This document shows positions 5,150 to 56,390 of a stretch of 64,000 nucleotides of DNA, piece by piece. The translations under genes were made by a program, and so were the position numbers. Source of the DNA: Deltaproteobacteria bacterium (GTDB taxonomy: Bacteria > UBA10199 > JADGCS01); the NCBI GenBank assembly GCA_015228875.1, contig JADGCS010000003.1, forward strand, positions 20,473 through 84,472, read 5' to 3'. The notes beneath the pieces are model-generated. The model was not told where the DNA came from, searched no databases, and saw only the letters and a program-made list of their open reading frames with translations. The first letter of the stretch is position 1; every line of letters begins with the position of its first letter.

Positions 5150-5194
5150 GCAAAAATTGATGCCGAAACGCGTAGAAAAAACCTTCCAAGGTTC
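5106..5194 (+). repeat. R1 dispersed ~89-bp repeat, copy 1 (orientation A)
   Basis: CATAACCCGCATAAAGCGGAAAACACTACGCGGGCGGACACCATGCAAAAATTGATGCCGAAACGCGTAGAAAAAACCTTCCAAGGTTC; internal inverted repeat CTACGCG...CGCGTAG and near-palindromic end AACCTTCCAAGGTT; 5 further copies in window. Confidence 0.85.
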
Positions 5195-5499
5195 TAAGAC
5201 AACAAGGAGGGGCAATAATGGACAACCCTTAACAGACATTAAAAAAACCTTGATTTTGATAATTAATAAACGAATGCCACCAAAGTACCAAAGTCCATTT
5301 TATGCTATTACAATGAATATGTGAACCTTTTTTTGCCCTTCAAAAAACAAAAGGAGGATAAACCTCTTTATTTTCACATCTTTTACTGGACAGGAAACTT
5401 TACATCGCGAAGTGACGATAATAAAGACAGCACAAAAATCAGATTTTTATGTAACAACAATCAGGATTATGATCTGAGACCCCAGACATAAAACACCGC

Positions 5500-8934: not shown

Positions 8935-9148
8935 GCCAGAACAGTGAACCTGTCTGCCTGAGAGGCATAGATGTTTACAGCATGGCGTCACGCGCAATAA
9001 TTTTAATATACAATTTACGACGTCTGTATACAATGCTTTCAATCTCAAACGGTGTTCTCTCCGCTCATACCAAAAAAAAAACAGAAAACCCTTAAAAAGA
9101 ACTCATCCCTCCCGCCAAAACTGTGATATGCTGATAAGATCGACAAAA

Positions 9149-9236
9149 GAACCTTGGAAGGTTTTTTCTACGCGTTTCGGCATCAATTTTTGCATGGTGT
9201 CCGCCCGCGTAGTGTTTTCCGCTTTATGCGAGTTAG
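9149..9236 (-). repeat. R1 repeat, copy 2 (inverted orientation)
   Basis: GAACCTTGGAAGGTTTTTTCTACGCGTTTCGGCATCAATTTTTGCATGGTGTCCGCCCGCGTAGTGTTTTCCGCTTTATGCG = reverse complement of copy 1 (~95% by eye); sits immediately upstream of the HD-GYP regulator start. Confidence 0.85.
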
Positions 9237-9243
9237 GGATCCT

Positions 9244-21699: not shown

Positions 21700-21872
21700 T
21701 AAAAACATCGGGCAATCCAATCGGGGATTGTGTTCATGCCCGTGGCTCTTTGGGTATATGCGCGTGTCAGGTTCAGATCGAAATTATCGAGCGCAATGGC
21801 CTCTTTACATTCGCGCGGGCAATCAGCGGTTTTTTGTCTTGTTGCAAACACAGTCAAAATCCCCAACCATCC
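21700..21872 (-). pseudogene. ~170-bp remnant homologous to an internal segment of the STAND Ser/Thr kinase gene (cf. 29170-29340)
   Basis: ~85% nucleotide identity by eye over ~140 nt (GGGATTGYGTT...CAGATCGAAATTATCGAG...CCTCTTTACATTCG...TTTTGTCTTGTTGCAAACACAGTCA) to the NTPase-domain coding region of 27406..30516; lies in the intergenic gap between 21650 and 21980 with no complete ORF. Confidence 0.45.
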
Positions 21873-21979
21873 CCTTAACTTGCTAATATGTATTGTGATT
21901 TACTATTATCAAAGTTATGACAAAAAAACTTTTGTCGCAGGCAACATTTGTTTGAGTTTTGCGATAAGCCCATAAACCT

Positions 21980-24913
21980 ATGAAGCAAGCCATCATTGCC
22001 ATTATTGTCTGTGTGTTTTTAAGTTTTGGTATTGCCTTTGACTCCCACGCCAAACCCACAAAACCCCTGATCACCTTTCCACCGCGTGGCAGGGTTGCGC
22101 CCGTGCGAGTCCCTTTTAAAAAACCTTGCATGAGCAAGAGTGACTACATGAGGAGGTTCGGCGGTCTCAATAATCTCTTTGGCCGTAATACACTTCGCTA
22201 CAACGACTGCGATGAGGATGGCTTTGATTCTACAAGAGACGGCGGTGGTGATTGCAGTGATTACAATGCCAACGTGCATCCGGGGGCGGTAGAAATTTGC
22301 GACGGGCTTGATAACGATTGCAACGGCACTGCGGACGATGGTCTGCCAACCCACACTTGGTATGCTGATGCAGATAATGACGGCTACGGCGATCCCACCG
22401 CGAGCACGAGCACATGCACGATTGCGGCGCCAGCGGGCTTAGTTGCCAACGCTAACGATTGCGATGATACTAACAATGCAATACATCCGGGTGCAGTTGA
22501 GGTCTGCGACAACGCTGATAACGACTGCACGGGCGGCATTGATAATGGGATTGCGCCTATCCCAGCGGATAACACGCAGGGGCTTTGTGCCTCTAACATA
22601 AAAGTTTGTCATGATGGTGATTTTGTAAATGCAACTGGCAATTATGTTCCTATGTCTGAAATTTGTGATGGGTTGGATAATGACTGTGCTGGCGGCACCG
22701 ATGATGGTTTAACCAATCGCCCTGCAAGCAATACACAGGGCCTGTGCGCGGGTAATACCGAAACCTGTAATGGCATTGATGGCTGGCAGGCCACCGCTAC
22801 CAATTACACACCAACAGCAGAAATCTGTGACGGCCTCGATAACGACTGTGCAGGTGGCATTGACAATGGCCTTGCCGACCGCCTCACCTCTAATCAAGAT
22901 GGTGAGTGCGAGGGTAATCTTGAACATTGCGAGGCTGTAGAGGGTTATCAACCCTTGGCAACCAATTATATTCCAACAGATGAAATCTGCGACAACAAAG
23001 ACAACAACTGCAACGACGCTGTTGATGAAGGTATTTCCAATATTCCCGCCCTTAACACGCAAGGGCTTTGTTCGGCCAATATCAGGGTTTGCAGTAGTGG
23101 TACGTTTGTTGATTTGGCTGCAAATTATATTCCAACCACCGAGATTTGCGATGGGCTAGATAACGACTGCGCCGGCGGCATTGATGACGGGCTTACCGAT
23201 CTCCCTGCAACCAATACAAACGGCGAGTGTGTGGGCAACAAGCTACAATGCAATGGTGTTGCTGGCTGGCAGGCAAAGGCAACAAACTACATACCGACCG
23301 ATGAGACCTGCGACACACTCGATAACAACTGCAACGGTACAGTAGACGAGGGTTTGACAATCTACACATGGTACACCGATGCAGATGGCGATGGGCACGG
23401 CAATCCCGAAATCTCTGAAACCAATTGCCATGCAACTTTTGCGTCCCATGTTTCTAATGCAGACGACTGCAACGATGCTGACTCCACTATTAACCCTAGC
23501 GTTGCCGAAGACACCACCCGCATTGGTGATGAAAATTGTGATGGCAAAGGCATAGGCAATCTAAGTGCCGCTGATGCTGTGTTTGAGGGGGATACGGCGA
23601 GTGATTATACGGGTTTCTCAATGGCCAATGTGGGGGATATGGATGGTGATAACGTGCCGGATATTTTGGTGGGGGCGCCGAGTTGGGATGCTAGTCTAGA
23701 ACCTTTGGGCACTGGTGAAGCAGTATTGCTTAGAGGTAATACAGAAAATTTTTTAAGTTTGGGAACCGAACTGTATCATGCGGGCGTGCACACTGGCGAT
23801 TCTGCTGGCTCCAGTGTTGCTAGTGCTGGTGATATGAATGACGATGGGGTGCCTGATATTATTATTGGAGCCACCACTGTTGATGGTGAAGGATTAGACA
23901 CTGGTGCTGCCTATTTAATCTATGGGCCTTATAATGAATCGGTTTCTTTGTCAGAAGCAGATTTTGTTTTAACTGGCATCGCTCAATATGACACTATTGG
24001 ATTTACGTTGGGATCTGCTGGTGATTATAATTGTGATGGATATGATGATCTCTTTATTGGTGGGGCATACAATAATAACGGTGGCACCAATGCCGGTGAA
24101 GCCTATGTGATCTATGGTCCTTTAGATACGGGGACAATGAGTATGACCTCTGCTGATGTCACCATAAGAGCAACAGAAGCTTGGAGTCTATTTGGCGACT
24201 CGGGTATGGCTACCGACCTTGATCGCGATGGTTGCTCTGATCTCATTATCAGCGCTCCTATGGCAGGTTCGACCGATAGAGGTAAGGTCTATATTTTTAA
24301 AGGGAGTGAAACCCCTGCAAGTCTGATAACAACTGCAACCGCTGATGTTATATTTACGGGCGGCACGGATGGCGAAGAAGCTGGTGGTGCAATTGCGATT
24401 AAAAAAAATGGCGACTTGACCGGTGACGGAAACATCGATCTTGTCATTGGTGCAAGATATAACGCCTGCGGTGGCACAGACAGCGGCGCCGTTTATATTG
24501 TATCCGACCCTTTGACCAGCAAGACACTCTCCACATTAGAGTCAGCCTTTATCTGCGGGGATGGCACGGGTGATCAACTTGGTGACTACAGCAGTTCCCT
24601 CGACATCGGAGACCTTGACGGCGACAGGGTTTATGATCTGCTGATTGGGGATGAGAGTAATGGCACATACTACGGCGCGGCTACTTTTTTATTTATGGGA
24701 CCCGTAAATGGAATCCACGACGCCTCTGATGCCAACTTCATTTTTGAAGGGCAATCCGACGTGGGCTATGCCTCAGGTAGGTCTGCAATCTTTATCGACG
24801 ATCTAAACAGTGACGGTTTTTTAGAAATTGGAATTGGTGATCCAAACTATAGCAATCCAGAAGTCAAAGCTGGCGCCGCTTATATTATTAATGGTAGTCG
24901 GCTCTTTAATTAA
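21980..24913 (+). CDS. large secreted protein with ~9 tandem Cys-rich 'putative metal-binding motif' (MopE-like, CDGxDNDCxG) repeats and C-terminal FG-GAP/integrin-alpha repeats
   Basis: Signal peptide MKQAIIAIIVCVFLSFGIAFDSHA; repeats EICDGLDNDCAGGIDDGL…; FG-GAP units DMDGDNVPDILVGAP, DMNDDGVPDIIIGA, DYNCDGYDDLFIGG, DLDRDGCSDLIISAP. Confidence 0.75.
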   Translation: MKQAIIAIIVCVFLSFGIAFDSHAKPTKPLITFPPRGRVAPVRVPFKKPCMSKSDYMRRFGGLNNLFGRNTLRYNDCDEDGFDSTRDGGGDCSDYNANVHPGAVEICDGLDNDCNGTADDGLPTHTWYADADNDGYGDPTASTSTCTIAAPAGLVANANDCDDTNNAIHPGAVEVCDNADNDCTGGIDNGIAPIPADNTQGLCASNIKVCHDGDFVNATGNYVPMSEICDGLDNDCAGGTDDGLTNRPASNTQGLCAGNTETCNGIDGWQATATNYTPTAEICDGLDNDCAGGIDNGLADRLTSNQDGECEGNLEHCEAVEGYQPLATNYIPTDEICDNKDNNCNDAVDEGISNIPALNTQGLCSANIRVCSSGTFVDLAANYIPTTEICDGLDNDCAGGIDDGLTDLPATNTNGECVGNKLQCNGVAGWQAKATNYIPTDETCDTLDNNCNGTVDEGLTIYTWYTDADGDGHGNPEISETNCHATFASHVSNADDCNDADSTINPSVAEDTTRIGDENCDGKGIGNLSAADAVFEGDTASDYTGFSMANVGDMDGDNVPDILVGAPSWDASLEPLGTGEAVLLRGNTENFLSLGTELYHAGVHTGDSAGSSVASAGDMNDDGVPDIIIGATTVDGEGLDTGAAYLIYGPYNESVSLSEADFVLTGIAQYDTIGFTLGSAGDYNCDGYDDLFIGGAYNNNGGTNAGEAYVIYGPLDTGTMSMTSADVTIRATEAWSLFGDSGMATDLDRDGCSDLIISAPMAGSTDRGKVYIFKGSETPASLITTATADVIFTGGTDGEEAGGAIAIKKNGDLTGDGNIDLVIGARYNACGGTDSGAVYIVSDPLTSKTLSTLESAFICGDGTGDQLGDYSSSLDIGDLDGDRVYDLLIGDESNGTYYGAATFLFMGPVNGIHDASDANFIFEGQSDVGYASGRSAIFIDDLNSDGFLEIGIGDPNYSNPEVKAGAAYIINGSRLFN

Positions 24914-25398: not shown

Positions 25399-27177
25399 TT
25401 ACTCATACTCACCCACATCTATTAGTAATAGTGATTTGTTAGTTACGTCAGTCACAATCAGTTGCTTGTCTTTTAACAACAAGCTGTTTGCCGAAAAACT
25501 GACGGTTTTGTTTGGCACTGAATCGGCAAGCTTGATTACAGTGCCTACGACGGGTTTTGCAATCGGGAGACCGTTTTCTTCCATAAGCGAAATAACGGAC
25601 ACGGTTTGATCATCATGATTTAACACATAAAGTTTACCACTTGTTCTGCTAAAAGTCATTGCCTGCGGGTCTTTGCCAACCATGACCACATTAGCTTCAT
25701 CTATTGTTTTTATGCCTGTTTCTAAATTAAAATTGCCAAGCCAGACTTTGTTATTTTTATCTAAAAGGGCAAAATCTACAATTTTGCTGTCGTCATCATA
25801 ATATGCAATCATATCTATTAACTGCACTTGATTATTATCTTTCCATATTTCACCACCAAGACGGTCCTCATCAGTTCTTCCAAATTCTTTGATGGCCTTT
25901 ATCCTTATGTTATTCTCATCATTAAAGACAACCAGGGTCCATTTCCAACCGCCAACATCTGCGTCCCCAAACCCCAACGTCCTCGTATGCCTGATCTCAT
26001 TGCCTTGGGTGTCGGTGTCGCCTGCGCGGGTGATCCAGATTATTTGGTGTTTCTCCCTTTTCCACTTCTCCTCAGTCACCGCGAAATTCAAATACCCCTC
26101 CGCCGCACTCTCCTGCTCAATCCCATAATACAAAATCCCATTCATCGCCCGCAAAAACGTGTACGCCTTGGCGTTGGGGTCGGTTACTTTTTCGCCGCTG
26201 TCTAGCACAATGCCGGCCTCGTAGTTGAGCAGTTGCACGCCTTCGGTGCCCATTACACCCAGGAGGGCGTCGGAGTCTGCATACGCAAGCTCGGTGCCTT
26301 CTGCATCAAATGTTTTGTAGCCAAGGTTGTAGTCGCCGGCAACCCGCATACCACTGCCATCATCGCGAGCTACAACACCATTGCCGTTTGCAAGTGAGTA
26401 CAATTCATCACCCGCCGAGTTTACATCAGTCGGCGTATTGCCAACATAGAGGAGGTTTTTTTTCGGGGTATCTTCTACAACCTGATCCGTCGCAGGTGCG
26501 CAGTCTTTATCCACGATGGTGTAGTAAAGTTTTTCGGTAGAGACCCCCTGATTGACAAAACACTTAAAGGAACCGTCTGTGTCGATGGGGCAGTAGGTAA
26601 ATTCATCGGAGCAGGTGGTTGCAACCTCTTGAGCATGGGCTTCTTTGATGAGCCAGCCGGACCAAGGGGATTGCCGCGTCGCTTTGCTCCTCGCAATGAC
26701 GGACGGCCGCTCTTTGCAGGCAACATCTGGAATAATCTCCTCAACACTCACCGCAATTTGATCGCCTGCTTCAAAATCGGTCACCGCACCCGCTGTGGCC
26801 GTGATCGGTACGTTACCTTGAGCATCCGGCGCAAATGTCAAAAAATTGCCTGAATCTAGCGACGGGTTAATAATACTCCCCGTGGGCAAGCTGCCCGGAT
26901 CCTCGAAATAATTGTTGTCGGGAGGGGTTATTCCTTCACCTTGGGCATCGGTGGCTTTTGACGACTGCGTTGTCCCAATCTCATCTACACTCGTGTCGGA
27001 CGTATCCATTGATGATGACGATGTTGACGGAGAATTTGATCCACCATTAGTATCATTCAAGAAAACAGAGCTGCCCACACCTTTTGAACAGGACGTTGCT
27101 ATAAATAGGGCAAAAAGATTTAACAAAATTTGGCGAACAATGGCATTCATCTCAAATAAACTGTACGCAAATCTCAT
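25399..27177 (-). CDS. secreted lipoprotein, unknown function (possible start at internal ATG 27150)
   Basis: MNAIVRQILLNLFALFIATSC signal/lipobox-like; Ser/Thr-rich linker then large domain; 592 aa. Confidence 0.55.
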   Translation of the reverse strand: MRFAYSLFEMNAIVRQILLNLFALFIATSCSKGVGSSVFLNDTNGGSNSPSTSSSSMDTSDTSVDEIGTTQSSKATDAQGEGITPPDNNYFEDPGSLPTGSIINPSLDSGNFLTFAPDAQGNVPITATAGAVTDFEAGDQIAVSVEEIIPDVACKERPSVIARSKATRQSPWSGWLIKEAHAQEVATTCSDEFTYCPIDTDGSFKCFVNQGVSTEKLYYTIVDKDCAPATDQVVEDTPKKNLLYVGNTPTDVNSAGDELYSLANGNGVVARDDGSGMRVAGDYNLGYKTFDAEGTELAYADSDALLGVMGTEGVQLLNYEAGIVLDSGEKVTDPNAKAYTFLRAMNGILYYGIEQESAAEGYLNFAVTEEKWKREKHQIIWITRAGDTDTQGNEIRHTRTLGFGDADVGGWKWTLVVFNDENNIRIKAIKEFGRTDEDRLGGEIWKDNNQVQLIDMIAYYDDDSKIVDFALLDKNNKVWLGNFNLETGIKTIDEANVVMVGKDPQAMTFSRTSGKLYVLNHDDQTVSVISLMEENGLPIAKPVVGTVIKLADSVPNKTVSFSANSLLLKDKQLIVTDVTNKSLLLIDVGEYE

Positions 27178-27431: not shown

Positions 27432-30400
27432 TATAATTTGACTCATCAAAGTCTGGATCTAATTTTAACCTTTCAATTTCCTTCTCAACCTCGTGCGCTT
27501 TGTCCATCTGTTTTTTTATTTTATAGCTCTCTGCCTTTTGAGTCAGCAAACGGAGACGGTATTGTTTTAAGCTATCATGGGCGGATAAAATTTCTGCTGC
27601 CTGCCCCAGGTGCCAATCCCCCTCAATATGCTCACCTTTATGCAGGCAAGCCATGGCCATTGTAAGATGCGCACTGAAGAGGCAATACACCTTCTGATTG
27701 ACGTTAATAAAATCATTTTTTTTTATACAATCCAAAACAAATCCGGCATGCTTTTGAGCTCCATCAAAATCACCTTTTTTGAAACACAGTGTTGCCATGT
27801 TACCTGCAATAATGAACAGATTAACGCCCGCGTGAGATTTTTTGGCAAGATCAAGCGCATGTTTGTAGTACTTAACAGCTTCATCGTAATGATCTTCTGC
27901 ATCTTCTATATTGCCAAGTTCGTTATACACCGCATAAAGCCACTTGGGCGTTCTGTTTTGTTTTATCAGGTCAAGCGTTTGCAAAAGCAGTCTTTTGCCT
28001 TTAACAGGCTCACCGCTCCTCAAATACGCAACTCCCAACTTCATGATCGTGCGAGGGTAATAATCCAAGTGGGGGGTTTTTGAAACAACCGCCAATTGTT
28101 CTTCGAGATACGCTATAGCCTCTTTGTGTTTTCCACCGTAGTGAAATATCATATCGCTGTCGTTTCTCTTGATGGCCTCGATTTTTTCGTCATCATCAAG
28201 TTCATTGTGCCAGATCTTCCAGGTGGATTGCGCAATATCTTGAGCCCGATTAATATTGCCTGATTCGAGTTCTCGCATCGCCTCCCAGTTTTTTATACTG
28301 ACCCAAAGCGCCTTGTGGCTCCGCAAACCATGACACAGTTTTTTTGCCTGTTCAAAACATTCAGTTGATTTGTGGGCTGTGCCCTTGCGGTTAAAGCAGA
28401 GGCCAAGCAGATACAGTGCCCTAGTTTTAAACACAATATCAGTTGTCTGAGCTTCAAGCTTTGCAAACCACTCGACAGCGGAATCATAGTCGGCATCATC
28501 AAGAAATAATTCACCCAACATCAATAGCGCCTCGTCTCTCACAGAGGCCTTAATGCCATCCCTGCATAAAATATCAGCGAGGTTCTCCTTTGCTTGATCA
28601 AACTCAAGTTCTTCGTAGTTCTTTTTTGCAAGTTCCAACAGAAATAGAAATGCCTGCGGTCCCGTCCCCCTGCCTCTAAAGAACAAAATCTGATCCTTAC
28701 TTGCGCCTTTTTTTTCAAAGTACTCAGCCAGCCTTTCGCAGTATGCAGACTTTTCATCACATGCAATCCTGCTCATAATGATTTTTGCGAAGTTTGAATT
28801 TAAAAAGGTGATTCTATTACCTGATAATGGTTTGAATATTTTATGTTCTGTAAAATAGACCAGGTCTTCATTCAAGCGAAGGTTGCCTGTAATCTTTATC
28901 AGATCATCAATAGACAACATGTTTTCGGACAGCGCCATGTAATTTAAAGTATCTCTTTGCACATCGCTGAGATGAAGGGATTCGATGACCGCCAAAAAAC
29001 GATTCTGTATAAAACCACTCACCCCGTATTTTTTTATTTCTACTCCCAGATCATCCAATATTTTTTCTGACCACCTCCCCTGCGCGTCCCTGAAAAAACC
29101 TGCATCAAAGAGTGTCTTGATATATTCCGCCAGGAACAACGGATTCCCCTGTGTCTGTTCGAAGACGGTGTTCACAATCCAATCAGGGATTGCGTTAATT
29201 CCCGTAGCCTTTTGGATATATGTGCGCGTCAGGTCCAGATCGAAATTATCGAGTGCAATAACCTCTTTACATTCGTGCGGGTAATCATCCGGCTTTTGTC
29301 TTGTTGCAAACACAGTCAGGACAGGCTCCCGTTTGTAACAAAATGTGGCGTAAATGAGTTCATCACGGTCAATGGTGTTATTGTCGGCAAGTATCAAACA
29401 GGGGCTGGGCGCTTGGCCCTCGGGGTATTTGTCAAACTCTTCGAGTGTCAGTACAGACACAAAAAATTTCTGTGCCTCATGTTTGCATTCCTGCAAAAAA
29501 CGGGTTTTTCCGGTCCCTTCATTCCCGCTTATGATGAGATACGGTTCTTTGCTGTAAGTTTTGTTTCTGATTCGATCTTCAAAATAAAGTTTAAATTTTT
29601 CAAACTCGTCTTCTCGTCCAATCATCTCGCCCTGTTCCGGTAGATAACTCATGATAGTTTGCTTGGTCTCAACAGGATAATTCTTGAACGTCAGAATGTT
29701 GATCTCTTCGATGACATCTGATGCTTTTGAATAACGGTCTTTCGGGTCCTTGCTTAATAACTTAAGTATAATTTTATCGAGATATTCCGGCACAGCATGG
29801 TTAAGTGATGAAGGTGCCAAGGGTGACTGCAAAAGATGTTTTTGATGTATTTCCTCAGGATAATGCCCCCTAAAAGGCTGCGTGCCAGCAAGAACCTTGA
29901 AGAAAGAGCAGGCCAGCGAATAAAGATCGGCCCTGCCATCAAAAGACTCACCCTTGATGATTTCGGGGGCAGTAAAGGGCGCAGTTCCGATGATCGCCGC
30001 TAGTCCCTCATTGCTCTGAGCCCTTGTCGCCGTTGCCCTGGAATGGGCAAAACCAAAATCAATGATTTTAACAAGGGGACCGCCCCCATCATCTGTGGTC
30101 ACAAGAATATTTTGCGGTTTAATGTCAAGATGGCAAATACCGTGCTGATGAAGGTAATTAAGGGCCCGCAACGATTGTATAAGCAGTTCTTCGACAAACT
30201 CAACTGGCTTATCCACGGCCGCATAAAACAAGTCTTTGCCGTCCACATATTCTGTCACAATGTAGAGTCTGTCCGTTTCGTCATCAAAGCCTGTATCATA
30301 AACACGAGCAATGTAGGGATGATTGAGATTTTTGAGAACATCAAACTCTTCCTTGAAAGCATGGCGAGTAGCAGCCTTGCCACTCGTGCGTGATTTTCTT

Positions 30401-36243: not shown

Positions 36244-36362
36244 CAAGTTACTAACTTGACTTTGATGCCCGAAGGAAATCCCCTTGGGGGACGCGGTTGA
36301 ATTCTTCCATCTTGCGAGGGATGCACCCGCGCTCTGTCTACCTTGAAATTCCTAGACATTCA
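36244..36362. repeat. R2 repeat copy a (contains 15-bp palindrome CAAGTTACTAACTTG + ~90-bp conserved tail)
   Basis: CAAGTTACTAACTTGACTTTGA[TGCCCGAAGGAAATCCCCTTGGGGGAC]GCGGTTGAATTCTTCCATCTTGCGAGGGATGCACCCGCGCTCTGTCTACCTTGAAATTCCTAGACATTC; homologous to 46359-46449. Confidence 0.75.
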
Positions 36363-36445: not shown

Positions 36446-37624
36446 ATGAGAGCAATGTTTACGGGTCCGCAGCCAAAAATTTTGATGCTGGGTGTGGGTG
36501 AGCAGGGTGGGTGTATTCTGGACATGTTACTTAAAGACGGGTTTCATGACATCCACATCGTGGATAAAAACACGGCCAGGGTCACAGCGCTCACACAACA
36601 ATACGGCAACGCAGTGAGAGCCTGTACCGACGCCCCTGATTGCCTATCGGGGGATCATACAGACCGCTTTGTTAAAAGTTATGACGCTGTCATCGATTCC
36701 CTGCCTGCGAGATTTTCATGGCCATACATGCAGGCTGCGGCACGCACCGGCACAAACATGGTCAGTGTTTCATTTCTCGAAGAAGATTTTATGTCACTCG
36801 ATGGCACAGCGGCTAAAAACGGCTCACTTATTATCCCCGATGCCGGCGCAGCCCCGGGACTTGTGGGTCTGATGGCGGCCCACGGCAGCGCACTTCTTGA
36901 CGGGGCCGATGTCATCATCGAAAAACTCGGCGCCCTGTCGGCAAGGCCCACTCCCCCTTATTTTCATGCCAACATGTGGTGTACAACAGACCTTATGGAA
37001 GAATATATCAGACAGGCCCTTGTGCGCGTTGATGGCGAGCTTAAACGAGTCGATCCTCTGCAAACAATCGAACGCGAAATCATCAGGGGCATGGGCGAAG
37101 AAATGGAATCCTTTATCACCGATGGCGTGCGGTCACAGGCGCAAAACCTCCCCGCAGTCAAAACATTTATCGAAAGAACCCTGCGCATCAAGGGTCATCT
37201 GGCGTTCATGAAAAACCTGTTTCATGCGGGTGCCTTAAGTTACAACGACATCACGCTGCCAGACGGCAGCACGATAAAGGCTTACGAGCTGCTGGCCAAA
37301 ATACTGGACAAACAGTTCGGCAACCTGCCTGCGGAGGACAGGTTTGTCATGGACATCACGGCCTCAAAGGGCAGCGCAGCAAGCCAAAGGCGCGTCAATA
37401 TTTTTTACCTGATGGCATACGACCACAAAAATAAAATCGGCGCCCTCACCAAGGCCGTAGCGTTGACTGCGTACATCAGCCTCAGACTCATGCTCGATGG
37501 CACCATTACTGAAAAGGGCGTGTACCCCTTGGAGCGACTGGGCCACAGGCCTCATATATATCAGGCCTATATCAACGCCCACCGCGAGGCAGGGGCAAGG
37601 ATCGATGAAGAAAGTGCTGTATAG
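36446..37624 (+). CDS. saccharopine dehydrogenase-family NAD(P)-binding protein (carboxynorspermidine/homospermidine-synthase-like fold)
   Basis: ATG 36446 with GGGAGGAAT RBS; N-terminal Rossmann ILMLGVGEQGGCILDMLLKDG; ~390 aa. Confidence 0.55.
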   Translation: MRAMFTGPQPKILMLGVGEQGGCILDMLLKDGFHDIHIVDKNTARVTALTQQYGNAVRACTDAPDCLSGDHTDRFVKSYDAVIDSLPARFSWPYMQAAARTGTNMVSVSFLEEDFMSLDGTAAKNGSLIIPDAGAAPGLVGLMAAHGSALLDGADVIIEKLGALSARPTPPYFHANMWCTTDLMEEYIRQALVRVDGELKRVDPLQTIEREIIRGMGEEMESFITDGVRSQAQNLPAVKTFIERTLRIKGHLAFMKNLFHAGALSYNDITLPDGSTIKAYELLAKILDKQFGNLPAEDRFVMDITASKGSAASQRRVNIFYLMAYDHKNKIGALTKAVALTAYISLRLMLDGTITEKGVYPLERLGHRPHIYQAYINAHREAGARIDEESAV

Positions 37625-38015
37625 TGTGCCCGCCTCGAGACTGTCGATTTATGCAATAAATCGACAGTCTCTATCCCTGTGGGAGATAAATATTGTGGTT
37701 TTTGATTAAAAAAACATATCAATTATCCATAATTCTGGAAATAATCTTCCAAAATTATTGCCTTTATGGTCCTGTTTTTAAACCACACCAAGGAATCAAA
37801 AGGCTCTCGTCTATAACGGACCCATGACAACACTGAAGCACAAAAATAAAACAATACAGGCGATCCCTCCTTTTATGATTACGGAGTTGGAAGGGTTGGT
37901 GTATGATCATTGACAAGCCCAATTTCTTTAAGCCCCTCTTGCCAAAAGGATTTTTCTTTAAAAAATTCCCTGAGAAAGTAAACCAATAAACTAATATGAC
38001 GGAGGTCGAAATTTT

Positions 38016-38090
38016 AAACGGAATAAAAATAAAAAAAGTTAAACTTTTTTCACTTTTTGGCCGGTTAACACGCAACCTGATAGGGTTTAT
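38016..38090. promoter_or_regulatory. R3 shared upstream element, copy 1 (50 bp upstream of 38136 gene)
   Basis: AAACGGAATAAAAATAAAAAAAGTTAAACTTTTTTCACTTTTTGGCCGGTTAACACGCAACCT…GATAGGGTTTAT; near-identical copy at 42266-42357; contains palindrome AAAAAAGTTAAACTTTTTT. Confidence 0.6.
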
Positions 38091-38135
38091 TCCGATAACT
38101 CTTTCAAATAAACTACAATTAAAAGGGATAATATT

Positions 38136-39893
38136 ATGGCTGAATTACCTCCTGTGGGTTGTTACTACACAACCAATGCACCTGGCTTTGAAGGCAAGAA
38201 AAAACTGGTGTGTGACCAAAGTGGTGAGGGAACACTTAAGACCGACGGGCCCACACAAGAACCAGATGGCGCGCAACATGCCGCAAACACCGATATGACC
38301 CAGCGATCAGATGACCCCTTCAGGTTTTCGCCGGGTGTGGATATTGACTACAATACCTTTTGCGAGGGGGTTGCGTTTATCAGAGACATGAGACTCTTTA
38401 ACGGCGTTGCACAGGGGATGGGTATGGGCATGGAGGCCGTTGCCCAGATTGACGACTTTATTATGGAAGACATGGCCCACACCCTGTTTTTTGATCCCGC
38501 GATGGAGGCCATGGGGGTTGAGCCTTTAGAAGAGGGGAGCGTTGAAAAAATGACCTTTGATTGGGGGGTGAGGACTGCCAATGCCGTAGGGATTTTTGCA
38601 ATGTACCACCGTTTTATAGGCCCCGGTAAGGCGTTTCCAACATGGGCGCAATTTAAAAGTGCGGCGGCCAAATACATGCCCTTTATTGGGATGATGTATC
38701 TCATGGAAACCAAACTTGTCAGTTCGCCCGATGCCGTGCTCAACGCGGTAGGACTGGACGGGCTTGAGGGGTGGCAACATGATGCGGCCTACTGGGGGAT
38801 TTTAGGCACAGGCACAGCGGGGGCCCTGGCCTATATCAATCACGAATATGTTAAACCAGTTTCTGAGGGTGGTAAAACCCTCTCCGCAAAATCTGGTGTG
38901 GCCTGGATTTCGTTTTGGCTCGCCTACTCCCTCTATTGGAGAATCATGACAGATCAGGGTAGGGCGTTGCAGTCTGTTGATGGGCAGGATGTATCGGGGC
39001 TTAATCCCCTGGATTGGGAGTGGGACTATGTTAATCCAGATACGGCGGCATCGGGCTATTGGTCATGGGCTGTTGCAGCACCTGCGTGGGGGGTTTTGGG
39101 AGCAGTGTCGAGATTTTTAACAGACTTTGAATCAAGGGTACTAAATCTGATAACAAGGGGCAAGGTTGGTGGAGGAGACTTTAACAGTCTCATGCAACTT
39201 TCGGGGGCAGAAACGGTAGCCATTGACGCCGCCGCCCCGGAGATTCTTGGTAGAAAACTCAAGTTTGCCTCGGGCGCCTTTGCCAAGGCGGCCGCAAAAC
39301 CCAGCCGTGTGGCCTACTCGCTTACGATGTTTGCAAATGGTCTTATTGCCGGCATGTTTGCAGGCAATGCCATGCAACAGGTTCGTGATTACAAAGACCC
39401 TTCAACGCTACATGGTTCGTCGGTAAGAACCGTGTTTACGGGCGGCGCAAATGTTCCGCTCACACATTCTCTTAAAATTCTGGGTTCGGATGTCAGTCAT
39501 TATCAGTATTATCTGGCAGGGATGCTCTTTTTATACCCCTATGAGTCCTGTAACGAAATTAAAGAGAGTCTCAGTACCATTGCGAGATATCAGGCCCACA
39601 AATTCAAGGCGAGTGTTGATCCTGTCGAAAAAAGGGAGATCGCGGGTTTGATTTATAAGCTGGGTCTGGCATCACTGCCAGGCACCTGGGACGGCAAAGA
39701 GTACAAGCACGGTGAACGTGACGAGATTATCAAATCTGTCAGTCAAGATCCAAAACTCTGGACTGAGGTTAATGATATTGCCGATTCTGTCGAAGAGGCC
39801 CTGATGGCCAGGGGGGTTGTAGTAGAGGAGATTGATCTTGATGAGTTTAGGGCCGTGATTGAAGATGCTATCAAATTGGAGAGTGGTTCATAA
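38136..39893 (+). CDS. hypothetical protein (585 aa), Trp/Gly/Ala-rich amphipathic segments, no signal peptide
   Basis: ATG 38136; coding-like ORF; no recognised domain. Confidence 0.55.
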   Translation: MAELPPVGCYYTTNAPGFEGKKKLVCDQSGEGTLKTDGPTQEPDGAQHAANTDMTQRSDDPFRFSPGVDIDYNTFCEGVAFIRDMRLFNGVAQGMGMGMEAVAQIDDFIMEDMAHTLFFDPAMEAMGVEPLEEGSVEKMTFDWGVRTANAVGIFAMYHRFIGPGKAFPTWAQFKSAAAKYMPFIGMMYLMETKLVSSPDAVLNAVGLDGLEGWQHDAAYWGILGTGTAGALAYINHEYVKPVSEGGKTLSAKSGVAWISFWLAYSLYWRIMTDQGRALQSVDGQDVSGLNPLDWEWDYVNPDTAASGYWSWAVAAPAWGVLGAVSRFLTDFESRVLNLITRGKVGGGDFNSLMQLSGAETVAIDAAAPEILGRKLKFASGAFAKAAAKPSRVAYSLTMFANGLIAGMFAGNAMQQVRDYKDPSTLHGSSVRTVFTGGANVPLTHSLKILGSDVSHYQYYLAGMLFLYPYESCNEIKESLSTIARYQAHKFKASVDPVEKREIAGLIYKLGLASLPGTWDGKEYKHGERDEIIKSVSQDPKLWTEVNDIADSVEEALMARGVVVEEIDLDEFRAVIEDAIKLESGS

Positions 39894-39975
39894 GATGGGG
39901 CAATGTGTTAGTGAAGGTGGGTAGGGGGGCAAGGCAACGTATTAATTTTTTTAGGAGGGGGTCAGAAAGGAATTT

Positions 39976-41670
39976 GTGCCACCCAAAGTAAGTGAGCAAA
40001 GAGTCGTAAAACTTGAGCTTGGTGATTTTGTAGTCAGGCTCAAAGAATGCATCGCAGACAGGATCGTCTCGGCCGAAGAGGCCCTGGATCTCTATGCCCT
40101 TGCCGATACCTCAAACAACCCTTCGGTCAGATTTTTTTTCACTCAATTTTTAACAGGGGGTGCCTCTGTAACTCGCTACACTAATGCCACGATTGGGCCA
40201 GGGCACGGTTATTTTGATTCAAAGCCAGCCCACATGTACACGGCAAGGGATCCTTATTTTAAAGATCAAAATCTTTGTTTAAATTTTAGTGGTGACTCCC
40301 TCAAACTCCCCTGTATAGAACCCGATCTTGTCGACGGGATTTTTGGTTATAATGCACTCGCATCTGTTGACGTTCCCTCTATGGGCGCACTCGTTTTTAC
40401 AGACCCGGCGGTTAAGGCCCGTCTGCAACGCGATGCCCTGCAAAATTGGGATGTTAATTCCAAAGATATTTCCATCACAAATGCCTTTAACATCATCAGA
40501 GACTATACGGGTGACGTGATCATGGTGAGGTCCATTTTGGAGAGGGTTTTTAAACAAATTTACACGCCCGCGGCCGCATCAGCCGTGATGGCCCTTACGC
40601 TTTCGATATTTTCGACATCGCCAAATATTATTACCACAGAAAGAGGCGCCTATGCGCGCATGGCCTATGCCAGCGCATGCAATTGGCGCGAACGTTATTC
40701 GAGGATGACCATTGCCTACAATCTCACACAGGAACCGCAAGTTAATCAGGCTGATGTGATGAGTGATGAAGGTTTTGTTGTTGAGGCAAAAAGAGAGTGG
40801 GTGGATGTTCCCATCAAACCGTCCATTGCTTATCCTGATATTCCCTCGGACTCTCAAGCTTTGTTGAGGGCTTTAGAAAACGAAAAAAACGAAATCCTTG
40901 ACGCGTGGCAAAGTCATATCGAGGCAACACGTGCGCACCCCGACACAGAGCGGGAGATTCCACGACTGCAGCTTGAGTACCAGGCCCTGATCAGGGCTTA
41001 CGAAAAATACCAGACACCCCAAAACGACAAGATGGTTTTTTCGTGGACCTATTTAAAACGCACTTTTTCGCAAAAGGAATACACCGTCGAGGCCTTGACG
41101 GGGACCTTGCAGTGGATGCTGACCGCCTTTACGAAGGATGATTCGGAGCTTGCCGCCATTTTGGATAAGGACCTTAATTTTGTGCGCGCCCTGGCCAGTG
41201 GTGATCCAGACGCTGTCTCCGTGGCCCTTTACATGGGCGGGGGATTTTTTGGTCCCTGGGTTGTCGAACAGGGGCTCCCGACAGTACTCAGAGTGGCGCA
41301 CTGGCTGGCCTCGACCTTTATCCCTTTTTTATCGGCCCCCGTACCCGCAACGGCAACCAGCATCACCGGTTTAAGGGCAAGCATTCTGGCTGCAGAGGCC
41401 GAAATAGCTTTACTTGAAGGCGGTACGGCTGTTGCCGCAGGCAGGTTTGCCGGTTTATTAAATTTTGCATCCAAATTTGCAAGGTTTAATCTTTACGCCG
41501 CTGTTGTGATGACCACGTATTCTACCCATGATTTTTATGATTCGGCAACAGACCGCTTTGGGGTGTCTTTGTCCTTACCCGCGTGGACAGCGGCCCCCGC
41601 AGCCTTTATGGAAAAAAGATATCAGTTGACGGAGGACCTCCCTTCGGCAGAAGAATTTAAAGACAGATAA
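39976..41670 (+). CDS. hypothetical protein (564 aa)
   Basis: GTG 39976 with GGAGGGGG upstream; follows 38136 gene by 82 bp, likely co-transcribed; no recognised domain. Confidence 0.55.
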   Translation: MPPKVSEQRVVKLELGDFVVRLKECIADRIVSAEEALDLYALADTSNNPSVRFFFTQFLTGGASVTRYTNATIGPGHGYFDSKPAHMYTARDPYFKDQNLCLNFSGDSLKLPCIEPDLVDGIFGYNALASVDVPSMGALVFTDPAVKARLQRDALQNWDVNSKDISITNAFNIIRDYTGDVIMVRSILERVFKQIYTPAAASAVMALTLSIFSTSPNIITTERGAYARMAYASACNWRERYSRMTIAYNLTQEPQVNQADVMSDEGFVVEAKREWVDVPIKPSIAYPDIPSDSQALLRALENEKNEILDAWQSHIEATRAHPDTEREIPRLQLEYQALIRAYEKYQTPQNDKMVFSWTYLKRTFSQKEYTVEALTGTLQWMLTAFTKDDSELAAILDKDLNFVRALASGDPDAVSVALYMGGGFFGPWVVEQGLPTVLRVAHWLASTFIPFLSAPVPATATSITGLRASILAAEAEIALLEGGTAVAAGRFAGLLNFASKFARFNLYAAVVMTTYSTHDFYDSATDRFGVSLSLPAWTAAPAAFMEKRYQLTEDLPSAEEFKDR

Positions 41671-41838
41671 TTTTAATCAAGGGTTGATATGGATCCCTTT
41701 TTAAAAACCACCAAACAGATTGTAAAAAATTATCTTTCAATCACCGGCAAAAGTTAAAAGTCATGGATAGTCACACCCTGTCGCGTCCCATCAATATTGA
41801 GAATCATGTTCCAGCTCAAATGAGACTCACGGACTCAT

Positions 41839-42177
41839 TTAAGGTTCAAGTCCGTCCAGTGGAATTATTTGAATTTTAAATTGTGCCCGGAGCCGGGACC
41901 CAGAAGACGATTGGGATCTTTGTTGTTGATGTTTAACGGGTAGAGTTCCTTGATTGTATGAATCAACTGAAGACATTCCTCCGAAAGAGGGACGGGCATC
42001 TTCTTGTTTAAAATAGCCAGGATTGTCTTGCCGCCACCTTTTCAGATACTCTTTTTTCCTCTTATTCTGGCATTCAGGCCTTCCACAGGTCTCTTGTTTT
42101 CCCTTGGTTCTGGGATCTGGTTTATAAAAGCGACCACAGCTCTTGCACTTTGGGGTGATGCGTTTTTTTATGCACAT
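41839..42177 (-). CDS. possible small basic zinc-ribbon protein
   Basis: MCIKKRITPKCKSCGRFYKPDPRTKGKQETCGRPECQNKRKKEYLKRWRQ – CxxC…CxxxxC; weak coding evidence. Confidence 0.3.
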   Translation of the reverse strand: MCIKKRITPKCKSCGRFYKPDPRTKGKQETCGRPECQNKRKKEYLKRWRQDNPGYFKQEDARPSFGGMSSVDSYNQGTLPVKHQQQRSQSSSGSRLRAQFKIQIIPLDGLEP

Positions 42178-42265
42178 CAAACTATTATCATTGAAGAAAT
42201 CAAAAATAAGAAGAATCAAATTGAGTTAAATTGAATAAAATACAATGTGATTTTTGGCTGGAATC

Positions 42266-42357
42266 AAACGGAATAAAAATAAAAAAAGTTAAACTTTTTT
42301 CACTTTTTGGCCGGTTAACGCGCAACCTTTGTATCAAATATAGCGATAGGGCGTATC
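42266..42357. promoter_or_regulatory. R3 shared upstream element, copy 2 (upstream of 42398 gene)
   Basis: AAACGGAATAAAAATAAAAAAAGTTAAACTTTTTTCACTTTTTGGCCGGTTAACGCGCAACCT + 16-bp insertion + GATAGGGCGTAT. Confidence 0.6.
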
Positions 42358-42397
42358 AGAAGAAGAGCTGAACTCAAAAGAAAAAAATCCCAACTTT

Positions 42398-44587
42398 ATG
42401 AACTTTATGAAAAATACAACCCTCATACTCTGCATCCTGTCCCTTCTCGTTTTACACACAGCCTGTAGGTCAAAAGCAACGACAGAAGAATTTAACTCTG
42501 ATTATTCAGAAAGTGACGAGAACGACAACAGCACCAGCGATGAAAAGATAGACCTTGGTCAATCCGATATCCCGCAAACCTATATGCTTGTTGATTTTGG
42601 CGGCTCTGCCCAAGACAATATTTATGGGATCGAAGAATGGAACACCGTGATCACTGGATCCGGCGTCGCATATGTCACCCAAAAAGAAATTACCGGAGTC
42701 ACGCTCACCACAGAAACGGAAAAGTTTGCAAGTCATGTGGGGATGACCGGCCCTGCCCTTAAACTGGACGCCGGCGACATGGTCGTTGCCTACTGGCACA
42801 ACGCAACCAATGGTATGGTCACCCTCTGGCGACCCCTCATCAGTTTTGTGGATATCGATCAGCCCGAAGACAAAGAGGGGGCTCCTCAGTGGTATGCCAT
42901 GAAAACTTTCGACGGCCCGACACGATTTGACTACATTCACGATGGCAGGCCCATGAAAAGTGTTTATGTCATTACATCAACAGAGACGGCGCCGGGTAAT
43001 TCTCCCCCAACGGAGGGGTGGCGCAGTGTGATCAACTTCAATCAGAACAGCACTTTCGCGGGGATTATCCTGGACAAGGTAGAAATCATCAAGGCCGCGC
43101 AATGCAAGCCGTCCGCCCCTTCAAATCTCAACCTCACTCTCAACGCAGCAAACCCGACATCCAGTGTCAAACTCGCGTGGACAGCATCTGTCGGTGATCC
43201 CCCTGTCAAGTATTACAAAATCATACGCAATGGACTCTGGATCGACAAAACCCTGGAGACACAATATACAGACTGGCACCTCAATCACTCCACACAATAT
43301 ACGTACACGATCACTGCCATTAATACTGTGGGGATCAGCAGCGAAAAATCCGGGGAGGCCGCCATCACCACTGCTGTTTTTTCATCCGCAAAACTCATCA
43401 ACCCTCAGCATGATCTGGAATACCTCGGCGCCTTCAGGTTTCCCACACAGACAATGGGCGCGTCCGGCTGGGCCTACAGACTCGGCGATCTCACTTACTA
43501 TCCCGATGGAGAAGGGGGGGCTTTTGGTCCCGGTGCTGCAGACGGTTATCCCGGAACTCTCTTCGCGTACGGGCACATCCATCAAAGAATGATCGCCGAG
43601 ATCAGCATCCCCGAGCCCATCATTGCAGACAGCTACGAAGAGCTCCCCGCAGCCGTTCACATTCAACCTTTCGCAGATGTCATCCCCGATAATAACCCCG
43701 GTTCATCCGACAAGGCATCACCAGGCTTGGAATATCTTGAATCCAACGATTTGTTCTTCACCATCTTTGGCGACAACTACAATGTGAGTTACAATAAAAA
43801 ACTGTCACATGGCGCTTTTAAGATGAACCCGAATCTTGCGAACGCATTTGTCTACGGACTCTGGTGGATTGGCAACAAGGAAGATTCCGACAATCCCAAC
43901 TATTATGCCTACGCGCATTTTCTTTTTGAAATCCCTCAAGCATGGTCCGACACCCACACACCCGGCAAACAGATTGCCTCGGGTGCCAGCAGGGCAGGTG
44001 GTGGGCCGCAGGGACCAGGGCTGGTTGCCGTACAAACCAATGAGCAGCCCGCACCAGACGCGGAACTGGGGTTTACAACACTTCTGCAATACGACCTTAA
44101 CGGCAAGGGCCCTGTCACCATGAACGGCTGGATCGAAAACGATGCGTGGACGGGCGGCGCCTGGCTCGAGGCCGGTTCACGATCTGCTGTGGTCTTTGTG
44201 GGTTCGAAGGCCCGTGGTGAGTACTTTTATGGTTATGCCGATGGGACTGTCTACACAGATGTGATCGACAATATCCCGCCCAATACCTCAAGTAGTGATG
44301 TTGGCAGCAAAGGTGGGGGTGCCCGCAGCTACGAATCAATGATGATTTTTTACAACCCCGATGACCTTGCAAGTGTCGCAAATGGTTCATTAACGTCAAC
44401 CGCGCCGCAACCCTACGCTGCGATTGTTCTCGATGATTACCTTCTCAAAAAAAACACCTACAGTCCAGATACCAAGGCACTGCTTGGTGAGACGGCCTAT
44501 GACAGAGAGGGAAATCTTCTTTTTGTCATCGAAAACAATGTTGCTGTCCCCAAGGTTGATATTATTCATGTCTGGAAAATAAAATAG
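42398..44587 (+). CDS. secreted lipoprotein with fibronectin type III domain
   Basis: MKNTTLILCILSLLVLHTAC signal/lipobox; FN3-like segment PSAPSNLNLTLNAANPTSSVKLAWTASVGDPPVKYYKIIRNGLWIDKTLETQYTDWHLNHSTQYTYTITAINTVGIS. Confidence 0.6.
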   Translation: MNFMKNTTLILCILSLLVLHTACRSKATTEEFNSDYSESDENDNSTSDEKIDLGQSDIPQTYMLVDFGGSAQDNIYGIEEWNTVITGSGVAYVTQKEITGVTLTTETEKFASHVGMTGPALKLDAGDMVVAYWHNATNGMVTLWRPLISFVDIDQPEDKEGAPQWYAMKTFDGPTRFDYIHDGRPMKSVYVITSTETAPGNSPPTEGWRSVINFNQNSTFAGIILDKVEIIKAAQCKPSAPSNLNLTLNAANPTSSVKLAWTASVGDPPVKYYKIIRNGLWIDKTLETQYTDWHLNHSTQYTYTITAINTVGISSEKSGEAAITTAVFSSAKLINPQHDLEYLGAFRFPTQTMGASGWAYRLGDLTYYPDGEGGAFGPGAADGYPGTLFAYGHIHQRMIAEISIPEPIIADSYEELPAAVHIQPFADVIPDNNPGSSDKASPGLEYLESNDLFFTIFGDNYNVSYNKKLSHGAFKMNPNLANAFVYGLWWIGNKEDSDNPNYYAYAHFLFEIPQAWSDTHTPGKQIASGASRAGGGPQGPGLVAVQTNEQPAPDAELGFTTLLQYDLNGKGPVTMNGWIENDAWTGGAWLEAGSRSAVVFVGSKARGEYFYGYADGTVYTDVIDNIPPNTSSSDVGSKGGGARSYESMMIFYNPDDLASVANGSLTSTAPQPYAAIVLDDYLLKKNTYSPDTKALLGETAYDREGNLLFVIENNVAVPKVDIIHVWKIK

Positions 44588-45654: not shown

Positions 45655-46235
45655 AACCAAAAAATCCAATCCATGTTTTAGAACGCATACACAGGGACAA
45701 AGCGCGCAACCTGAAAAGCCCTGAATGAGGGATGAACCCCCATCAAATACCGATGCACAGACGCAAACAGGGCATCAACTGCAGTCCTAAAATTCATATG
45801 ACCACTACCACCAGATTCCCCACCGCCTGTGGGCCATGGAGAATTTAAGGGCGGTCCTCCGGGAACATGAGGCATGACAACACCGCCGCTACCGCCGGTC
45901 TGTCCGGGAGGTGAGATATGTTCACCACCGGGGACGTGGGGATGCGGGCCTGATGGCCTGTGGGGTTGCGGGGAAGCCTCCGGTGGCCTGCCATGCACGC
46001 TCATCATGACATAAGAGTCCAGGGCCTGTGGTCTCGCCGATGTTGTCCTTGCGGGCGCAAACGCACTCCACGCTGCTGTTGACGAAGCCATCACTGATGG
46101 CCATACTGCTCTCATTCCAAACATATATTCCCCTTTCTGCTCTTTGTTTTTTTACGGTTCATGCATGGGAATTTCAAAGTCAATCGAGCGCGGGTACATC
46201 CCATGCAAAACAGAAGAACTCAGCCGCGTCATAGA

Positions 46236-46250
46236 CAAGTTAGTAACTTG
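46236..46250. repeat. R2 core palindrome CAAGTTAGTAACTTG (isolated copy)
   Basis: Exact 15-mer identical to 12636-12650. Confidence 0.7.
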
Positions 46251-46358
46251 TGTTTTTGTTATCGGGTTCTGCTGCGTGATGTTGCGTAAAATCACAAAAA
46301 AATTTGCCACCAAGAACCACCGATCCGTTATCCTAAAAACATCTATAGGGCGTGTTGA

Positions 46359-46449
46359 CAAGTTACTAACTTGACTTTGACGCGGTTGTATTCTTCCATT
46401 TTGCGAGGAATGCACCCGCGCTCTGTCGACTTTGAAATTCCTATACATC
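46359..46449. repeat. R2 repeat copy b
   Basis: CAAGTTACTAACTTGACTTTGACGCGGTTGTATTCTTCCATTTTGCGAGGAATGCACCCGCGCTCTGTCGACTTTGAAATTCCTATACAT. Confidence 0.75.
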
Positions 46450-56301: not shown

Positions 56302-56390
56302 CATAACCCGCACAAAGCTGAAAACACTACGCGGTCTGGCACATCGTAAAATATTGTTGCCGAAACGCGTAGAAAAAACCTACCTAGTCC
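56302..56390 (+). repeat. R1 repeat, copy 5 (diverged centre)
   Basis: CATAACCCGCACAAAGCTGAAAACACTACGCGGTCTGGCACATCGTAAAATATTGTTGCCGAAACGCGTAGAAAAAACCTACCTAGTCC. Confidence 0.75.

Follow-up and report, generated by a model that had tools for sequence, protein, structure and literature searches.

The 64-kb window analysed here, a stretch of 64,000 nucleotides from a Deltaproteobacteria bacterium (contig JADGCS010000003.1), carries two copies of a short repeat, R3, at positions 38016-38078 and 42266-42328. Each copy lies upstream of a gene unit, and the initial annotation of this DNA had taken the repeat for a duplicated promoter and operator through which a single factor would co-regulate both units, an interpretation that is only partly supported. 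From its homology, R3 is most probably the terminal 63 bp of the left end (LE) of a compact mobile element, which encodes a zinc-ribbon protein and two Xer-like tyrosine recombinases (Int1 and Int2), and the two copies in the window would stem from two old insertions.

By repeat search and direct reading, the copies are identical at 62 of 63 positions and lie in the same orientation, 4250 bp apart, the sole mismatch being an A at 38070 against a G at 42320. The presence of a near-identical element in front of both gene units is thus confirmed, as is its distance of 50-70 bp from the genes: between the repeat and the start codon lie 57 nt at copy 1 (ATG at 38136) and 69 nt at copy 2 (ATG at 42398). 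Its proposed length of 70-90 bp does not hold, as pairwise alignment limits the homology to 63 bp with abrupt borders at both sides. Nor does the GATAGGG string that was thought to extend it, which is out of register (at +1 in copy 1 and at +17 in copy 2); what does keep register in the flanks is CGATA, located 16 or 17 nt past GCAAC (38093-38097 and 42344-42348). When the window was scanned with three sub-patterns of R3, allowing up to 3 mismatches, only these two copies were found, with none expected in shuffled sequence. Both include an A/T palindrome of 9+1+9 nt, AAAAAAGTT-A-AACTTTTTT, at 38032-38050 and 42282-42300.

The element family was reached through a single metagenomic contig. A metagenome scan with a 20-mer from R3 gave five matches, four of them due to chance and the fifth on contig L004 (3643 nt, 58% G+C), one end of which aligns with R3 along its whole length. 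The alignment has 36 identical bases (AAACTTTTTTCACTTTTTGGCCGGTTAACACGCAAC); GAATAAAA is kept further in, while the left arm of the palindrome is not. Inward from this end, L004 encodes a zinc-ribbon open reading frame (ORF), a further ORF and two Phage_integrase genes. Among species-representative genomes, the 20-mer TCACTTTTTGGCCGGTTAAC gave three matches, none of which reaches past the 20-mer and which are hence ascribed to chance; viral contigs, scanned three times with different segments of R3, gave no match, and blastn of R3 against plasmids and phages returned low-complexity noise only. The search for homologues of the Int1 of L004 yielded 549 sequences below an E-value of 1e-30. Most of the 120 matches listed come from contigs of 2-4 kb, a length similar to that of the element, which suggests that the element is multi-copy or variable in context and therefore breaks assemblies. 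The matches listed include a cluster with the NCBI label Nanoarchaeota and another from cultured Corallococcus exiguus. One further contig, L010, from a Deltaproteobacteria metagenome-assembled genome, has no DNA in common with the window, which leaves it without a tie to the source genome.

The 14 contigs examined represent ten distinct elements of about 3.3-3.6 kb (L004, L009, L011, L014-L018, L021 and L022), from which the family was defined. Their layout is constant. At the zinc-ribbon end, the flank gives way to the LE, with the block GTTGCnnn and a 15-bp arm, TTAACYGGCCAAAAA; this is followed by the genes for the zinc-ribbon protein, Int1 (about 345 aa) and Int2 (about 380 aa), and by the right end (RE), where the inverted arm (...TTWTTGGCCRGTTAA) overlaps the stop codon of Int2 and precedes TTGCnnnn and the flank. 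Across the examined loci the recombinases measure 334-461 aa, and L004, L014 and L021 contain an extra ORF of about 140 aa. L021 and L014 come from the read sets SRR22387808 and SRR22388342. In the alignment of the LEs (A2), GTTGC and TA.C.GG are invariant. The (G)TTGC blocks lie outside the arms in direct orientation, and the arms are mutually inverted. The recombinases score best with the XerC, XerD and XerA models, far below the cut-offs (170 against 335 bits), and no Pfam or NCBIfam model matched either the zinc-ribbon protein or the ORF of about 140 aa.

Several comparisons bear on where the element ends. L017 and L018 are 99.2% identical, and their identity begins 5 nt outside GTTGC, while the two window copies diverge 2 nt beyond the block. 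The first bases of contig L021 are exactly GTTGCGTG and its last are TTGCGTGGTTTTTT. In the distant member L022 the arms are kept and both ends have, in place of the TTGC block, a 7-bp direct repeat, TTAACAT, as would suit a crossover or target segment. Additionally, L015 carries an empty site, AAAAAAAGTTGCGTGGTTTTTTT, 95 nt from the occupied one.

Joining of the two termini would give TTTTTGGCCRGTTAA-TTGCGTG-TTAACYGGCCAAAAA, a dif/lox-like arrangement in which about 7 bp of spacer separate two inverted arms, and the predicted circular junction reads TTTTTGGCCGGTTAA-TTGCGTG-TTAACCGGCCAAAAA. Inverted arms around a short spacer are the standard core site of tyrosine recombinases. According to this scheme, Int1 and Int2 would be the arm-binding proteins and would carry out strand exchange in the TTGC block, and R3 is made up of a putative crossover block, a putative recombinase-binding arm and a subterminal region. 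The insertion sites would read (A-run)GTTGCGTG(T-run) and lie 21 nt away from a TATCG(G) box, usually in the 5' region of a gene toward which the LE is turned; the corresponding empty sites would have the form A-run-GTTGCGTGG-T-run. A subterminal (T)TTAAC(T) motif is found 25-37 nt inside the arm in the LEs of L004, L014, L015, L016, L017/L018 and L021 and in the window R3, and TGAAAAAAGTTT is conserved in the LEs of L004, L014 and L021 and in the window. Both may be extra protein-binding sites.

The two copies in the window fit the 15-bp arm and the GTTGC block exactly, and they are the two highest scores of the position weight matrix (PWM) in the window, at 24.0 against 16.3 for the next. 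They differ in what has survived beside them, as a zinc-ribbon gene reading inward from the LE is present, in a cut-down form, at copy 2 only and is absent at copy 1. This remnant lies within the minus-strand ORF 41839-42177 and retains the motif CxxC...CGRPEC...W..NPGY. It shares 30% identity with the zinc-ribbon ORF of L004 (BLASTP, E 1e-8), and in tblastn from all element loci its best match is to L009, at 48% identity. With hhalign, it matches the eight-sequence profile A3 with a probability of 98.1% (E 7e-14), and the homologue search started from the stub in the window gave no matches. The adjoining fragment of Int2 shows 31-41% identity to the Int2 of all loci in tblastn and matches profile A4 with a probability of 93.8% (E 1.8e-7, hhalign). 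Since the zinc-ribbon stub is followed by an Int2 fragment in another frame, copy 2 must have undergone an internal deletion of about 2.5 kb, which implies the loss of what would have been the rest of the zinc-ribbon gene, Int1 and the first half of Int2. The remainder of Int2 and the RE are gone as well. At copy 1, no element remnants were found to the left of the repeat (37625-38015), and no similarity was found between that interval and 41671-42265. The coordinates of all these features are collected in Table 1.

Table 1. Features of the R3 copies, their flanks and their surroundings. Positions refer to the 64-kb window unless a contig is named.
Feature	Position	Strand	Remarks
R3 copy 1, solo LE terminus (probable)	38016..38078	-	Homology to the LE of L004, L014, L021 and others
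Copy 1, putative crossover block	38076-38069	-	GTTGCGTG; parts listed inward on the minus strand
Copy 1, putative arm	38068-38054	-	TTAACCGGCCAAAAA
Copy 1, subterminal region with palindrome	38050-38032	-	
R3 copy 2, LE terminus of a decayed, internally deleted element (probable)	42266..42328	-	Homology to the LEs of the family
Copy 2, putative crossover block	42326-42319	-	GTTGCGCG
Copy 2, putative arm	42318-42304	-	
Copy 2, palindrome	42300-42282	-	
Zinc-ribbon gene remnant (first gene of the element)	42004..42177	-	About the first 55 residues kept, after which the ORF runs out of frame
Int2 fragment, 44 aa	41898..42029	-	Profile columns 187-225 of 392; frame differs from that of the zinc-ribbon remnant
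Possible, very degenerate RE arm	41720..41754	-	ACTTTTGCCGGTGATTG...TTTTTT; weak, not claimed
Flank motif at copy 1	38072..38097	+	GCAAC (last bases of R3), N16, CGATA
Flank motif at copy 2	42322..42348	+	GCAAC, N17, CGATA
Unoccupied motif	46260..46285	+	TATCGG-N15-GTTGCGTA; intergenic, toward the 45678-46124 (-) gene
Unoccupied motif	21941..21966	-	GCAAC-N16-CGATAA on the plus strand; 13 nt before the ATG at 21980
Unoccupied motif in L015	180-204 of L015		TATCG-N15/16-GTTGC; intergenic, toward a gene start
Gene pair downstream of copy 1, 585 aa and 564 aa	38136..41670	+	No Pfam domain; context, not element
FN3-domain lipoprotein gene downstream of copy 2	42398..44587	+	Context, not element
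Copies of the repeat family of about 90 nt	5105-5204, 9136-9238, 15094-15183, 16819-16902, 56302-56387, 57403-57505		
Copies of the small-ORF repeat family	36290-36359, 46161-46251 (inverted), 46358-46448		

The history of the window would thus comprise two insertions, one upstream of the gene pair encoding the 585-aa and 564-aa proteins and the other upstream of the FN3 lipoprotein gene, both of which then decayed by deletion, leaving the LE, the zinc-ribbon stub and the Int2 fragment at copy 2 and the 63-bp tip alone at copy 1. The one base by which the copies differ belongs to the crossover block, in which sequence taken over from the target would be expected, and two separate insertions therefore fit better than a segmental duplication. 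As tblastn detected no recombinase gene in the window other than the 44-aa Int2 fragment, and no intact Int1 or Int2, the copies are remnants rather than functional members of the family, and they would be inactive at present.

Some observations weigh against this explanation. Neither an intact element nor a clear RE is present in the 64 kb. The ungapped PWM scan of the window revealed no RE, and gapped local alignments of 41720-41754 with six RE sequences were not significant, with shuffle p-values ranging from 0.02 to 0.6. Two LE tips in direct orientation, each devoid of an RE, require at least three deletions, which is plausible. Furthermore, the proposed cleavage positions, arm binding and circular intermediates are deduced from the symmetry of the sequence, and R3 could have an additional regulatory role.

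One regularity of the flanks was unexpected. In every LE flank, TATCG(G) is located 21 nt outside GTTGC (22 nt in copy 2), and the same arrangement is found at three unoccupied sites; the sequence between the two boxes varies, even from L017 to L018, which are 99% identical. Read toward the gene, the motif is GCAAC-N16-CGATAA, i.e. (A)CGCAAC-N14-GCCGATAA, and the consensus of the distal box over 12 sites, GCCGATAA, equals the -10 consensus of sigma-28, whose promoters have the form TAAA-N15-GCCGATAA, with TAAA (TCTAAAG) at -35 (PMC12784957). In the window, the distal box of copy 1, TCCGATAA (38091-38098), matches this -10 consensus at 7 of 8 positions and is followed after 37 nt by the ATG, while that of copy 2, AGCGATAG, matches at 5 of 8. 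The exact motif occurs four times in the window against 0.33 expected, and all four sites are intergenic and aimed at a gene start; the products of two of the genes behind them are exported (the FN3 lipoprotein and a MopE/FG-GAP protein). In five of about nine contexts, namely in L009, L014, L016 and both window copies, an outward gene begins 53-69 nt from the LE, and in relatives from other genomes the LE often faces a gene start 53-65 nt away. No homology was found among the genes that face the LE in different loci, as would characterise a cargo family.

These features have an alternative explanation that is compatible with the transposon origin of R3. In it, ACGCAAC would act as a -35-like box and (G/T)CCGATAA as a -10-like box of a promoter resembling those of sigma-28 or of extracytoplasmic function (ECF) σ factors, which the element would target and preserve and through which one sigma factor would co-regulate the two gene units and other genes with the motif. 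This is a tentative proposal and rather unlikely overall. The constant spacing of TATCG in LE flanks from unrelated genomes, despite the variable bases in between, speaks for it, together with the sigma-28-like consensus of the distal box, the surplus and placement of the exact motifs, the exported proteins and the recurrent proximity of an outward gene. However, the -35 position reads GCAA(C) at all sites, unlike the TAAA/TCTAAAG of sigma-28, and the downstream genes are not flagellar. When one mismatch is allowed, the motif is no longer enriched (five sites against four expected). The outward gene is more distant or absent in L015, L011, L017 and L022, with no such gene near the LE in L017 and L022. 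TTATCGG also resembles the arm of the element itself (TTAACCGG or TTATCTGG) and could be an accessory recombinase site or a target-selection site. The possibility that the LE flanks contain older, nested LE remnants was dropped, as the 8 nt before TTATCGG are unlike GTTGCGTG.

The initial annotation had found no match to the consensus of sigma-54 or sigma-28 by eye. For sigma-54 this holds, as the spacing between the GG and GC doublets of TGGCCGGTTAACACGC exceeds that of the consensus by one base, again as judged by eye. For sigma-28 it holds for the -35 position, but not for the -10-like box, which is located outside R3. A further-reaching proposal, and a somewhat more doubtful one, is that an undescribed class of tyrosine-recombinase transposons would recognise ACGCAAC-N14-GCCGATAA, insert exactly at the -35 box and regenerate this box from its own end, which would let the promoter survive; R3 and the sites at 21941 and 46260 would then mark a single regulon of largely exported proteins. 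A weaker form of co-regulation, through a GCAAC-N16-CGATAA motif straddling the edge of R3, is possible. In any case, R3 should not be used alone for defining a regulon.

Another explanation, and an improbable one, regards the two copies as attL/attR-like direct repeats bounding a module of 4.25 kb (the genes for the 585-aa and 564-aa proteins and the zinc-ribbon stub) that recombinases acting in trans could excise as a circle. The copies are indeed direct repeats 4250 bp apart, each with an arm and a crossover block; the enclosed genes are almost without relatives, and the GC skew of the interval 38-40 kb is positive (+0.17), unlike that of the adjoining intervals. Nevertheless, both sites represent the LE half, each having a single good arm, and the inverted partner arm is missing in the PWM scan. 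Tyrosine recombinases normally need identity in the crossover region, and the single mismatch sits precisely inside the crossover block (38070 against 42320), which argues against efficient site-specific recombination between the copies. In addition, the Int2 fragment beside the zinc-ribbon stub ties copy 2 to an ordinary decayed element.

The original proposal of a duplicated host promoter with a palindromic operator, acting through one factor on both units, is marginally less probable again and is largely refuted by homology. The position and orientation of R3 upstream of both units are in its favour, as is the palindrome of 9+1+9 nt. Yet in other organisms this sequence is the terminus of a mobile element that encodes recombinases, copy 2 is bordered by what is left of transposon genes, and a sigma-70 scan found no sigma-70-like pair of -35 and -10 hexamers inside R3. 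The palindrome itself is real in both copies, but its role as an operator is not borne out by the ends of L004, L014 and L021, where it is not kept at that position. An RNA element (a 5' leader, riboswitch, small RNA or terminator) is highly improbable: transcription of the minus strand could yield a long A-U hairpin (z = -3.6), but this hairpin consists entirely of A/T and is not conserved in the homologous ends, the plus-strand leaders fold no better than shuffled sequences (z = -0.8 and -0.1), and Rfam was negative both at the gathering score over the window and at E-values of up to 1 over 37600-42500. A miniature inverted-repeat transposable element was also rejected, as the PWM scan revealed no second inverted arm and terminal inverted repeats are thus not present at both ends.

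Taking R3 as the end of a tyrosine-recombinase transposon, the closest known kinds are the multi-recombinase transposons, namely the Tn554-related elements, SEs, GInts and RITs (PMC10214605; PMC3414803; PMC8138268). Like the family, Tn554-related elements (TnpA, TnpB, TnpC) insert site-specifically, encode a pair of tyrosine recombinases along with a small accessory protein, and have imperfect inverted repeats at their termini and a short junction of about 6-7 bp (PMC10214605; PMC3414803). In contrast to them, and with TnpA, TnpB and TnpC compared by description only, both recombinases of the family are short and Xer-like (about 345 and 380 aa), with no TnpB-like protein of more than 600 aa; the zinc-ribbon accessory gene comes first and not last, and the hosts are uncultured lineages from environmental metagenomes rather than Staphylococcus or Enterococcus. 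SEs, GInts and RITs resemble the family in grouping several tyrosine recombinases in an operon, with accessory proteins at one end of the element, and in having target specificity, terminal inverted repeats of 13-34 bp and a joined core with a 6-bp spacer (PMC10214605). SEs encode IntA, Tfp, IntB and Srap together with cargo, and GInts and RITs have three recombinase-like genes, whereas the family encodes two recombinases and essentially no cargo within its 3.3-3.6 kb. BIM modules, with one recombinase and an SMC-like protein, were rejected as unlike it.

The likeness to XerC/XerD-dif and to the integrative mobile elements exploiting Xer (IMEX) lies in the Xer models that score best and in the presumed core of inverted arms with a centre of 7-8 bp. 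The recombinases of the family are, however, encoded by the element, paired, provided with 15-bp arms of their own and well below the Xer cut-offs given above, and the sites are not chromosomal dif sites. As leftovers, the window copies are comparable to solo transposon ends and internally deleted remnants of insertion sequences, which are likewise non-autonomous, intergenic and near gene starts, although the parent element of the window copies uses tyrosine recombinases and not a DDE transposase. Sigma-28 (FliA) promoters share the box GCCGATAA, here outside the LE, and a 15-nt spacing to GCAA at the -35 position; they differ in the mismatched -35 and in the non-flagellar nature of the downstream genes. 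In sum, the family differs from Tn554, SEs, GInts and RITs in its two short Xer-like recombinases placed after a zinc-ribbon protein, in the near absence of cargo and in its own ends and target. No description of it was found in the literature searched, which is no proof of newness.

Regarding the surroundings, copy 1 sits in a 512-nt gap behind a saccharopine-dehydrogenase-like gene, directly after which a 36-nt inverted repeat of 94% complementarity (37637-37671) is probably the terminator of that gene. Copy 2 lies between the minus-strand ORF with the zinc-ribbon motif and the FN3 lipoprotein gene. The 585-aa protein (38136-39893) matched only itself in a word-indexed database (locus tag HQM16_01265), and 16 distant relatives with 24-35% identity were found among 1.84 billion representatives, so that it belongs to a very rare family. 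The gene at 21980-24913, behind one of the unoccupied motifs, encodes a secreted protein with FG-GAP repeats and five coding repeats of 159-162 nt (22517-23208), which encode putative metal-binding motifs of the MopE type (DNDCxGGIDNG).

The window contains other repeats. A family of about 90 nt with the core ...ACTACGCGGGCGGACACC...GCCGAAACGCGTAGAAAAAACCT... is present in six copies, in both orientations and with 61-98% identity, mostly near the ends of large ORFs. The small-ORF repeats comprise about the first 25 codons (M-x-x-NFKV(D/N)RARVH...QPR, with no Pfam match) followed by a palindrome, CAAGTTACTAACTTG, and two of their copies form an inverted pair that flanks the unoccupied motif at 46260-46285. 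A direct repeat of 144 nt (21713-21856 and 29175-29318; 86% identity, 7.5 kb apart) has one copy just upstream of the motif at 21941. Finally, an inverted pair of 34 nt containing CGTCATTGCGAGGA is found at 754-787 and 26668-26701, 26 kb apart.

R3 is an ordinary feature of this window; of moderate interest are the family of the parent element and its target rule. For this genome, the repeat would be the mark of past transposon insertions beside poorly conserved genes and genes for exported proteins. The parent family looks compact and abundant; its ends can be cleanly defined, and it combines a core of the lox/dif kind with a strictly bipartite target. If that target were indeed a class of promoters, the family would offer a rare example of a transposon homing to promoters and leaving them intact.

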